The notes beneath the pieces were generated by a model. That model saw nothing but the letters and a program-made list of their open reading frames with translations. It was not told the DNA's origin and searched no databases. Made by a program: the position numbers and the translations under genes. This document shows positions 12,087 to 35,613 of a DNA stretch of 64,000 nt, piece after piece (the first letter of the stretch is position 1; every line of letters begins with the position of its first letter). Origin of the DNA: Alphaproteobacteria bacterium. Lineage in GTDB: Bacteria; Pseudomonadota; Alphaproteobacteria; RF32; CAG-239. Location of the stretch: positions 4,782 to 68,781 of the forward strand of contig JAZLAM010000020.1 in the NCBI GenBank assembly GCA_045613125.1. Direction: 5' to 3'.

Positions 12087-12692
12087 TTAATCAGAGTGTT
12101 TTTTCCACTTATAAAAATAAACATAACAAAAATAGTCATTATCACAAGCATTATTACAAGCCTCTTTGATATCAGCTAATGTATAGCTTGTTTTAATCTC
12201 AAGATTATAAACGTTATCTGTAATTGTTGAGTATATAAAATTATGATCACCACTATAAGTTACAGCACTTATCGCATTATAATTAATCGGTAATGCAGTT
12301 TCCCAATGATGGGATAAAAAATCTACACAAAGATTTATACGATTACTTTCTCTAAAAGTTATTCCAAAGGCACCATAGCTTAATTGTATCTCACCACCAT
12401 TAGGAAGCGTACATTTATAAGACGCATCGCACAACGCTTTATCTACTATGCCTAATTTTACTGCATTTTGATTAGATATTTCTTCATCTTCGTCAGAGTT
12501 TTTTAACAACAATTCATTCAAGCCCATCAAAATATTAGAAACAATATCTACAGTTTTATTCATTTTTTGTTTGTACATGGCTTTAGAATAACCGGCAATG
12601 CCTCCAACTGACAAGACACCGATGATGGCCAAGACGCCAAGCATTTCTACCATACTTCTTCCGTCTTGATTGTTTTTAAATAATTTCATCAA
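12087..12692 (-). CDS. type IV pilin-like protein (prepilin-type N-terminal cleavage/methylation domain), orphan
   Basis: Class-III signal: short basic leader, cleavage-site Gly, then RSMVEMLGVLAIIGVLSV with Glu at +5. C-terminal Cys pairs (CDASYKC; CNNACDNDYFC) typical of a pilin D-region. SD aggag 8 nt upstream of the ATG. Confidence 0.6.
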   Translation of the reverse strand: MMKLFKNNQDGRSMVEMLGVLAIIGVLSVGGIAGYSKAMYKQKMNKTVDIVSNILMGLNELLLKNSDEDEEISNQNAVKLGIVDKALCDASYKCTLPNGGEIQLSYGAFGITFRESNRINLCVDFLSHHWETALPINYNAISAVTYSGDHNFIYSTITDNVYNLEIKTSYTLADIKEACNNACDNDYFCYVYFYKWKKHSD

Positions 12693-33659: not shown

Positions 33660-34223
33660 ATGAAAACAAATCACACTAAAGAAAGAGCTAGACTCTTTAC
33701 TACATCTGCAGATGTGTTAAAATTAAAGGATGCACAATTGCAAAAGAAAACAGTCAAAACACCACTGCCAATAATTTACAAGACAGAAGATGGGATGTTT
33801 GAAGAACTCAATTATCTTGACTTATCAAGACGTCATGAGGTTTGTGGTATTTTAACCGGAATGATTGTTTGGCCTCTTGTCGGACAAAGTTTTAACATTC
33901 CCTACTTTGGTGTTGAAAAATACGTCGAAACTAGTAATGGAGAAGTAGATGAACTTTGTTTGCCAAGTGTTGCCGGTTTCGAGAGCTTTGATGAAGGAGA
34001 ACTGAATGCAACTTTTCATATTTTAAGATCTTACGGCTTAGAATGTGAAGATTTTGTAAAACATGGCGTTTATTGGACAAGAAATCGAGACGGATACTCT
34101 GTCGCTGCATATTCGTTTGCAAGCAAAACTACGTATTATGTCAATCCAAACAGAAGGACAGGACATTTCCGTGGTTGTGTGTCAAAATGCCGTTTGTGTA
34201 TTAGCGGTAAACTCAAAAAATAG
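33660..34223 (+). CDS. hypothetical protein
   Basis: ORF followed by a strong terminator; no recognisable motif. Confidence 0.3.
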   Translation: MKTNHTKERARLFTTSADVLKLKDAQLQKKTVKTPLPIIYKTEDGMFEELNYLDLSRRHEVCGILTGMIVWPLVGQSFNIPYFGVEKYVETSNGEVDELCLPSVAGFESFDEGELNATFHILRSYGLECEDFVKHGVYWTRNRDGYSVAAYSFASKTTYYVNPNRRTGHFRGCVSKCRLCISGKLKK

Positions 34224-34256
34224 TAGGAATAATCTTGCTGATTTGTACAAATTTAT

Positions 34257-34288
34257 ACCTCCCAACCAAGTTGGGAGGTATGTTTTTG
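34257..34288 (+). terminator. rho-independent terminator
   Basis: acctcccaac / gttgggaggt 10-bp stem followed by T5. Confidence 0.7.
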
Positions 34289-34329
34289 AATTAGATTTAA
34301 AAAAGCATCATCGTATGAGTTGTTAGTTG

Positions 34330-34530
34330 GGAAAATTTAATCGGGAGATCGCTGGACGCGTTCGGCATAAAAGCCTCAGCGAGCGATGACTTTTACTAGA
34401 ATCGTCACCGGCTTTGAACGAAAAAAATAATACTGTCACCGCTCCGAGCAAAGCGAGATCAAGCGGCCTTCAAATTAGTTTAAAAAATCGGAAGGTCCCT
34501 TGACGTTTCTTGGCAGAAACGAGGGAAGAC
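34330..34530 (+). ncRNA. candidate structured non-coding RNA or leader (GC-rich island in an AT-rich intergenic region); identity unknown
   Basis: Local GC is far above the genome background. Short complementary segments (tcgctg/cagcga; repeated gtcaccg). No ORF. A downstream long hairpin plus U-tract at 34631-34690 could serve as its 3' end. Strand not established. Confidence 0.2.
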
Positions 34531-34630
34531 AGGTTTGTGTTTTTTTGTATTTTTATGGCATAAAATGGGTATTTTTTTCAGCAAATGAGAATCGTTAAAA
34601 AACGTTTATTTACAATGCTTTCAAGCATTT

Positions 34631-34690
34631 AAAACTGCTCTATTTAAACGTACGTTTAAATCAAGCAGTTTTTTTGATGTTTTTTTCGAA
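34631..34690 (+). terminator. 42-bp near-perfect palindrome/hairpin (contains 18-bp perfect palindrome TTTAAACGTACGTTTAAA at 34643-34660) followed by T7 and T7 runs
   Basis: aaaactgctcta-TTTAAACGTACGTTTAAA-tcaagcagtttt then tttttttgatgttttttt; read directly from the sequence. Confidence 0.5.
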
Positions 34691-34784
34691 CCTCTATTTC
34701 TTCTAAATCTTTGAAAAACAATAAAATGCAAATTTTAAATTTTGTAAATTTCTCCTTTTTACACTGCGTCAAAAAAACGTACGT

Positions 34785-34800
34785 TTAAATTACACTACTT
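34785..34800. promoter_or_regulatory. second copy of the AAACGTACGTTTAAAT motif (12-bp perfect palindrome core), about 100 bp upstream of the 34898 gene
   Basis: Identical 16-mer at 34646-34661 and 34785-34800. Confidence 0.5.
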
Positions 34801-34897
34801 ATGTGCTGAAAAAACTTGGAAATCTGGACCAAAGCGCTTGGTGTGGTTGTTCGTTTTTTTAGCCTATGTAACGTTATATAAATAGGAGATTTTTATT

Positions 34898-35515
34898 ATG
34901 AAAAAACATATTTTATTAACAACAATGGCAATGCTTTTATCTGCTACGGCTATTAATGCAAATGCCGGTTCAAACAGCGCAACCCTTGAAATGACAGTAT
35001 CTGTGTTAGCACCAGTTGAAATTATCAAAAAGCAATATCTAGGATTTGGTGTAGTTCTAGCAGGAGAAGAAGGTGAAACCGTGATTGTTACAACAGACGG
35101 AAAATTAGATCCGAAATCCACCGCAACTATGATGTTAAAAGCCACATATCAGAACTATGGCGATGGTGAGTCCTATCCGGGTACTGCACATGGTTCATTA
35201 AATGAGGGTTTATTTCAAATTAAACACCCGGACATAACAACGGAATATGATGAAGAAAGTTTGAATTTATTATATAAAGTAAACTTTGCTCAGAATGAAG
35301 TTAATCTTGTTGATGCCGCAACCGGAACAACGTGTGGCAGCGTTAGTGGTTTTGACGCTCGTTTTACACCTTCAGCTGAAGGAGAAATGCATCTTCATGT
35401 TGGTGGAACTTTTACAACCGCTAAGATGAGTAAAAGTGCAACATGTCAGGGGGAAACAACTGTTACAATCGTTTTAAATGAAGAGTATATAAAAAGTGAT
35501 ATAGAGAATATGTAG
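34898..35515 (+). CDS. secreted protein, possibly SCPU/DUF4402-like (Csu-type pilin fold)
   Basis: Signal peptide ...AINANA. Mature N-terminus ATLEMTVSVLAPVEIIKKQYLGFGVV resembles the SCPU/DUF4402 donor-strand region. Two Cys (CGSVSG...CQGE). Confidence 0.35.
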   Translation: MKKHILLTTMAMLLSATAINANAGSNSATLEMTVSVLAPVEIIKKQYLGFGVVLAGEEGETVIVTTDGKLDPKSTATMMLKATYQNYGDGESYPGTAHGSLNEGLFQIKHPDITTEYDEESLNLLYKVNFAQNEVNLVDAATGTTCGSVSGFDARFTPSAEGEMHLHVGGTFTTAKMSKSATCQGETTVTIVLNEEYIKSDIENM

Positions 35516-35577
35516 TTCAATATATTGCCAATAAAAAACTCGTTTATGTTCAGCTAGTGTCTGATACAAAAAAAAGC

Positions 35578-35613
35578 TTGGATGAAAAATCCAAGCTTTT
35601 TTGTATTCTGTAA
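35578..35613. terminator. bidirectional hairpin terminator between convergent genes
   Basis: aaaagcttgga tgaaaaa tccaagctttt, flanked by A-run and T-run. Confidence 0.65.

Follow-up and report, generated by a model that had tools for sequence, protein, structure and literature searches.

Two copies of a dyad-symmetric site, AAACGTACGTTT, stand upstream of a probable pilin gene in an uncultured alphaproteobacterium, and we consider it probable on balance that they are the left and right inverted repeats (IRL and IRR) of a 129-bp invertible element that renders pilin expression phase-variable. A hix-like inverton controlling a pilin family is the most likely identity of the region; we infer the inversion itself, the class of the recombinase and the split-promoter logic.

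The sites are located in a 674-bp intergenic gap (34224-34897) of the window, that is, the whole 64-kb stretch of DNA that was analysed. The features of this gap and its borders are listed in Table 1. The pilin gene on its right is an orphan copy, without an operon and with a terminator behind it, beyond which rpsI-rplM lie on the opposite strand; a 2027-aa ORF (36763-42846, minus strand) adjoins rplM-rpsI. No plausible small ORF was found in the intergenic region, the tRNA/tmRNA scan gave no match, and Rfam, searched at gathering and permissive thresholds with the window, this region and five loci, returned chance-level matches only. Folding of the GC-rich island at 34300-34560 did not make either strand stand out (z = -0.9 and -1.3). 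The hosts of these loci are low-GC, uncultured Alphaproteobacteria known from metagenome assemblies alone, and a gut origin is not demonstrable.

Table 1. Positions of the features in and around the intergenic region (window coordinates).
Feature	Position	Strand	Remark
187-aa gene, function unassigned	33660-34223		Left border of intergenic gap
Terminator of 187-aa gene	34254-34282
GC-rich modules, AATCGG(G/A)AG plus hairpin; the second then a T-run	34339-34546	+	Tandem copies in relatives
Candidate promoter P1 left of IRL, TTTACA-16 bp-AAAACT	34609-34636	+	Consensus match only
Site 1 (IRL), 42-bp dyad, core AAACG-TA-CGTTT at 34646-34657	34631-34672		From sequence; both sites in 13 loci
Presumed invertible segment, 129 bp between site centres	34652-34780
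Inner half of IRL, ACGTTTAAATCAAGCAG	34652-34668		From alignments; putative function
T7-GATG-T7 beside inner IRL half	34669-34686	+	T-run in all lineages; putative role
Central block CTAA..TTTGAAAAACAATAAAATGCAAATTTTAAATTTTG	34703-34753		Kept in relatives (alignments)
Site 2 (IRR), core AAACG-TA-CGTTT at 34775-34786	34763-34790
TACACT, -10-like hexamer fixed in right flank	34791-34796	+	TATACT in some loci
Palindrome ACCAAAGCGCTTGGT, right flank	34828-34842		Absent from L010 and L013 type
TGTAACGTTA, 8 bp upstream of SD	34867-34876		Separate from IRL/IRR motif
SD AGGAGA	34884-34889	+	Upstream of 205-aa gene
205-aa secreted protein gene	34898-35515	+	Right border of intergenic gap
Terminator behind 205-aa pilin gene	35570-35602

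The earlier note had described this gap as an array of ACGT-core palindromes forming an operator set for one dimeric regulator. Direct reading and a search confirmed that TTTAAACGTACGTTTAAA at 34643-34660 is a perfect 18-bp palindrome, that with its flanks aaaactgct (34631-34639) and agcagtttt (34664-34672) the dyad spans 42 bp, interrupted by a 2x2 internal mismatch (cta/tca), and that two T7 runs (34669-34675 and 34680-34686, separated by GATG) stand behind it. The second copy of the 16-mer AAACGTACGTTTAAAT is exact as reported, but it lies at 34775-34790 and not at 34785-34800, a displacement of 10. The two shorter elements, AAACGTTT at 34600-34607 and TAACGTTA at 34869-34876, are positioned as claimed; as relatives of the same motif, however, they do not survive comparison, since AAACGTTT is not kept in related loci and TAACGTTA belongs to a different conserved 12-bp palindrome, TGTAACGTTACA. 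In addition, TAACGTTA ends 8 bp before the SD, rather than about 20 bp as had been stated, and 22 bp ahead of the ATG. Thus, dyad symmetry holds for the two large sites, whereas four ACGT-core operators serving a single regulator fail the comparison.

Each large site is built around a clear centre. The presumed crossover point of site 1 falls between 34651 and 34652, with the half-sites carrying CTGCT (34635-34639) and AGCAG (34664-34668), and the centre of site 2 falls between 34780 and 34781, with CTGCG (34764-34768) in the inner half. Complementarity between the 28-nt arm of site 2 and 34642-34669 is 82%. Each half-site terminates in AAAC(C/G), and three of the four carry CTGC approximately 13-17 bp from the centre; judged by its sequence, the dyad at each site fits one protein dimer per site. 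The 17-bp inner half of IRL, ACGTTTAAATCAAGCAG, is invariant in all loci that include it, and its reverse complement carries TTGATT (AATCAA at 34659-34664). Within the same half, AATCAAGCAGTTT resembles WATCAANNNNTTR, which we take to be the IHF consensus.

The genome-wide 12-mer search proposed in the earlier note as a way to define a regulon was run on the window, where the 12-mer occurred at these two places only and gave no regulon signal. In 16 related loci, the degenerate core AAACSNNSGTTT was confined to the corresponding positions upstream of pilin genes and came as a pair wherever a contig spanned both sites; the motif was found nowhere else in the 64-kb window or in about 90 kb of related loci. 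MITE, REP and IS-end identities were rejected, the sites being confined to this position upstream of pilin genes.

Twenty related upstream regions were compared, drawn from metagenome and MAG contigs. A scan of GTDB genomes yielded one locus and a pattern scan of JGI metagenomes one short contig, and a match on a viral contig (L012) was set aside as a chance match within a coding region. Both large sites were present in 13 loci, that is, everywhere the contigs reach them. Centre to centre, they were 129 bp apart in 11 loci and 128 bp apart in two, reflecting a single 1-bp indel in the segment across lineages, though about 40 bp of it are freely substituted.

The cores of the two sites change together. 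In the window type, both sites read AAACG-TA-CGTTT. In L002 and L003, site 1 reads AAACC-TA-CGTTT and site 2 AAACG-TA-GGTTT; in L010, L011, L013 and L015, the cores are AAACC-AA-CGTTT and AAACG-TT-GGTTT, respectively; and in L001 they are AAACC-TA-CGTTT and AAACG-TA-CGTTT. In the L002 and L010 lineages, neither core is palindromic, yet the core of site 1 is the exact reverse complement of that of site 2. The central dinucleotides match in inverted orientation in 13 of 13 loci, as TA/TA in the window, L002, L001 and others and as AA/TT in L010, L011, L013 and L015. Over 21 positions in nine distinct sequences, complementarity between the sites was 92%, compared with 34-44% when the partner was slid. 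Four positions changed on both sides, and none of 500 shuffles reached the covariation score; the covariation consists of only two independent double substitutions. The core variants recurred in independent samples. Because the cores covary as reverse complements, the two sites stand to each other as an inverted repeat and not as separate operators.

This covariation is not predicted by independent operators, whereas inverted recombination sites or RNA pairing predict it. We therefore regard as quite improbable the proposal that a dimeric or tetrameric factor of the GalR or LacI kind loops the 129 bp between the sites, with TGTAACGTTACA as a further operator. The dyad symmetry of both sites, the strict spacing around a conserved central block, the TetR-family gene adjoining the pilus operon in L010, L011 and L015 and the lack of orientation variants among the loci would all suit such a loop. 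Looping nevertheless offers no reason for sites that remain exact mutual reverse complements through two double substitutions while losing their own palindromes, and the absence of the motif from the rest of the window and of the related loci and the lack of conservation of AAACGTTT also count against it.

RNA pairing deserves closer attention, since it shares the prediction of covariation. Site 1 would then be a terminator, or the 5' hairpin of a leader or small RNA, and would pair with site 2, either as a long-range helix in a 5' UTR of about 250 nt or between a nearby small RNA and the pilin mRNA, to control termination, processing or stability. The hairpin of the window is stable (-18.1 kcal/mol, z = -5.5), with U7 behind it, and RNAalifold recovers a site 1:site 2 helix with covarying pairs. 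The GC-rich modules upstream share the layout of AATCG, hairpin and T-run, so that site 1 could terminate the last of them, and a single orientation at all loci is as expected for an RNA. The terminator or attenuator suggested earlier is borne out in part: terminator-like hairpins of -15 to -19 kcal/mol form in L002, L005 and the window, but that of the L010 type is weak, at -10.1 kcal/mol (z = -1.4), indicating that termination is not the conserved function. A consensus terminator scan did not call the site-1 hairpin.

Several properties of the helix itself also fit an RNA poorly. A partner sited behind the terminator comes too late in transcription to serve as an anti-terminator. Outside the core of 12-16 bp there are three invariant A-A mismatches, only one G-U was counted among 189 cells, and L001 has a C-C mismatch mid-helix. 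Moreover, there is no obvious RNA rationale for a site 1 that is complementary both to itself and to site 2, the rest of the region is little structured (right-flank consensus -5.85 kcal/mol), and no Rfam family matched. Taken together, these observations make an RNA element unlikely in our view, although it retains a real share of the probability.

We return to inversion as the favoured reading. A recombinase encoded elsewhere in the genome would bind each dyad site as a dimer, synapse the two sites and flip the segment between them, with exchange at the central dinucleotide. It would most likely be a serine invertase of the Hin/Gin/Mpi kind, which is favoured because the cores fit AAAC(C/G)-(A/T)A-(C/G)GTTT. 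The core pair of L001 breaks both the RNA pair and the long overlap of a tyrosine recombinase, and its sequence is compatible with the 2-bp crossover of a serine recombinase.

The orientation found in the assembly is predicted to be OFF, with the weak -35 GTCAAA now 17 bp from TACACT and with a hairpin and U-tract behind upstream transcription. Inversion would bring the invariant inner IRL half into place so that TTGATT lay 17 bp from the fixed TACACT, predicted to be ON, and would convert the T7 runs to A-tracts just ahead of TTGATT, similar to an UP element. An in silico flip of 34652-34780 yielded TTGATT-17-TA(C/T)ACT with A-tracts upstream in 12 of 12 loci, and the predicted flipped junctions are AAACTGCTCTATTTAAACGTACGTTTTTTTGACGCAGTG and AAAAACTGCTTGATTTAAACGTACGTTTAAATTACACTAC (also given as AAAACTGCTCTATTTAAACGTACGTTTTTTTGACGCAGTGTAAAAAGGAG and CATCAAAAAAACTGCTTGATTTAAACGTACGTTTAAATTACACTACTTATG). 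Scored with an approximate E. coli matrix, and for a split-promoter idea conceived post hoc, the flipped site was the best gene-directed sigma-70-like site in these 12 loci (8.9-9.0 bits, compared with 5.5-8.4 bits in the present orientation), a score that the window reaches roughly every 2.2 kb on each strand. Promoter-like matches occur at chance frequency in the AT-rich DNA of the window.

Other observations weigh against inversion. The flipped orientation was not seen among approximately 12 distinct assembled loci, which makes a weak test, as assemblies report the majority orientation only. No serine or tyrosine recombinase gene was detected in the 64-kb window or beside the operons of L010 and L015; the Pfam scan, which covered essentially every window ORF of at least 120 aa except the 2027-aa ORF, returned housekeeping families or no match. 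The 129-bp segment leaves little length for synapsis, which would require the DNA to be bent. At the sites, the match to the outer TTC/GAA of the Din consensus is poor, and the TA centre of the window is symmetric, so that the core alone would not fix the direction of the exchange.

The same sites also occur upstream of more than one pilin gene per sample: the paralogues P0007, P0013 and P0022 co-occur in samples ERZ27256946, ERZ28653801 and ERZ28653731. P0001 and P0004, each on a 73,916-bp contig, probably represent one contig. Among 12 truncated contigs, seven end within 20 bp of a site centre; heterogeneous structure, collapsed repeats or thin coverage of AT-rich hairpin DNA may lie behind this. 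Contigs starting near site 1 or site 2 include L003, L008, L009, L014, L015, L020 and L021, as well as L017, L018 and L022.

In L001, the sequence passes from L010-like to window-like precisely at the centre of IRR; in L015, it remains L010-like across IRR and turns window-like further to the right. Mosaic stretches were noted at 2749-2900 of L001, 130-250 of L015 and 1-175 of L006; these mosaics point either to recombination between paralogous loci or to chimeric assembly. The contig ends and the switch point of L001 are no more than suggestive of inversion, since other mosaic breakpoints exist. The mosaic relatives (L001 at the IRR centre, L015 further right) and the failure to find a recombinase gene in the DNA scanned could also mean that the sites are an inactive relic, footprints of past duplication or recombination that spread a pilin cassette and have been kept by linkage. 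This we think very improbable: the non-coding region is better conserved than the coding sequence in nine of ten loci, the 17-bp half-site is invariant and the spacing fixed, and the compensatory core changes indicate ongoing selection.

Between the sites, the central block includes a dyad, GCAAA-N-TTTGC, and is a candidate site for an accessory or bending protein; no Fis-like match was found in it by eye. To the left of IRL, the -10 of P1 reads TAAATT or TAAACT in relatives, and the TTTATTTACAA block is strongly conserved. Promoters of the sigma-54 and EcfG types and TyrR, PurR, LexA and CIRCE boxes were rejected by eye on spacing or sequence.

The right flank holds a second dyad set (34799-34868), in which the inverted repeats ATGTGCTGAAAAA and TTTTTTAGC..AT (TTTTTTAGC.CAT) flank ACCAAAGCGCTTGGT. 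It shows a few compensatory changes but weak RNA stability (the consensus of -5.85 kcal/mol given above), and in L010, L011, L013 and L014 its central block is swapped for unrelated sequence. Closer to the gene, the 12-bp palindrome TGTAACGTTACA is present in most relatives, with the variants TGTAACGTTATA in the window and TGTACCGTTACA in L009. The window copy is a possible operator, and the TetR-family product encoded beside the pilus operon in L010, L011 and L015 could, judging from its position, bind TGTAACGTTACA.

The GC-rich modules were found at 34339-34546 of the window, 2026-2608 of L001, 666-890 of L013, about 95-300 of L019 and 2144-2212 of L002. Four stand in tandem in L001, repeating every 182 bp or so, and L010 lacks them. 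The module hairpin consists of an outer stem, a conserved TTGA bulge and an inner stem, and is usually followed by GACAGG and a T-run; its sequence varies between lineages with the same architecture, and it has no Rfam match. The left flank of the switch also starts with AATCG (34590). The modules upstream of the switch are candidate small transcription units, perhaps small-RNA genes in tandem or terminator modules.

The earlier note had taken the downstream gene to encode a secreted SCPU/DUF4402-like protein; the protein has a signal peptide, and its match to DUF4402 falls below threshold (E = 0.005). Thirty homologues of the 205-aa protein were collected, at 41-100% identity, and weak DUF4402 matches were obtained for 22 of 29 aligned family members. 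In L010, L011, L015, L013 and L001, the homologue is the first gene of an operon that also codes for a 316-aa DUF4402 protein, a PapD_N chaperone and a 902-aa usher-like protein. The top folds for the AlphaFold model (pLDDT 84.9) were the pilins Caf1, CfaB, FimA and SafA, at weak similarity (TM 0.26-0.40), and the family profile gave no match among PDB sequences. Operon context and the predicted structure thus point to a probable subunit of a chaperone-usher pilus.

The signal peptide is nearly invariant in the pilin family. In nine of ten loci, the 250 bp upstream (34648-34897) are 71-85% identical to the window, compared with 59-69% for the coding sequence, a pattern that suggests diversifying selection on the mature pilin. 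Two tandem pilin paralogues lie behind one upstream region in L007 (15-1260) and L019 (1172-1938). A type-IV-pilin-like N-terminus, GRSMVEMLGVLAIIGVLSVG, is common to two proteins of about 200 aa, encoded at 12087-12692 of the window (minus strand) and at 1407-2009 of L001, the latter directly upstream of the switch region; Pfam gave no match for either.

If the favoured reading is correct, uncultured Alphaproteobacteria vary their surface pili by DNA inversion, a form of surface variation described chiefly from Bacteroidales and enterobacteria. Inversion would also explain why a non-coding region is better conserved than the antigenically diversifying gene under its control, and the compact 129-bp switch with hix-like sites would be a possible genetic part. 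A more specific proposal, to which we attach only tentative belief, is that a Hin-like invertase varies pilins at multiple loci and that the 129-bp mini-inverton swaps only the -35/UP half of a split promoter. In that case, each divergent pilin gene would have its own copy, allowing combinatorial antigenic variation, and the segments would be among the smallest of the Din type, with a new promoter logic. The motif pair AAAC[CG]NN[CG]GTTT, occurring twice about 129 bp apart, offers a handle for finding further loci and the cognate recombinase.

Among known systems, gal OE/OI with HU and lac O1/O3 likewise have two dyads approximately 100-130 bp apart, a central element and strict spacing, but such operators need not be mutual reverse complements, whereas the cores described here covary as such. 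The fimS element of E. coli and the mrp element of Proteus, which are inverted by the tyrosine recombinases FimB/FimE and MrpI, resemble the present one in lying directly upstream of the gene for a chaperone-usher major subunit and in the expectation of accessory bending-protein sites. fimS spans 314 bp, its inverted repeats measure 9 bp, and its recombinase genes lie next to it; here, no recombinase is adjacent, and the dyads are long with hix-like cores.

Another parallel is Mpi, in which one distant serine recombinase serves short invertible regions upstream of many variable surface loci; here, the same inverted repeats lie upstream of at least three co-occurring pilin paralogues. AAACGTACGT would match ARACGTWCGT, which we presume to be the Mpi inverted-repeat consensus and for which a literature search returned no match. 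The two systems differ in phylum (Alphaproteobacteria against Bacteroidota), in target (pilin genes against capsule operons) and in the smaller segment here, as well as in promoter placement, which is predicted to be split across IRR here and lies wholly inside the segment in Mpi-controlled regions; our inversion is, moreover, inferred. Mpi of Bacteroides fragilis inverts 13 regions (PMC4747536), and, according to the title of Patrick et al. (2003), the inverted repeats of B. fragilis resemble those of hin.

The Din family (Hin/hix, Gin/gix, Cin/cix, Pin/pix and Min/mix) differs from the present element in its segments of 1-4 kb, compared with 129 bp here. Our segment also contains neither a recombinase gene nor a recognisable 65-bp Fis enhancer, the TA centre of the window type is symmetric, the outer TTC/GAA is poorly matched, and extra conserved CTGC motifs lie beyond the 26-bp core. 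The likeness resides in an inverted pair of sites, each an imperfect dyad around a 2-bp centre, and in an output of surface-structure variation. [quoted passage not shown] The core AAAC-/-A/-GTTT is matched in all of our loci, and the site 1 core of L010 is identical to the pixR/mix core at 12 of 12 positions.
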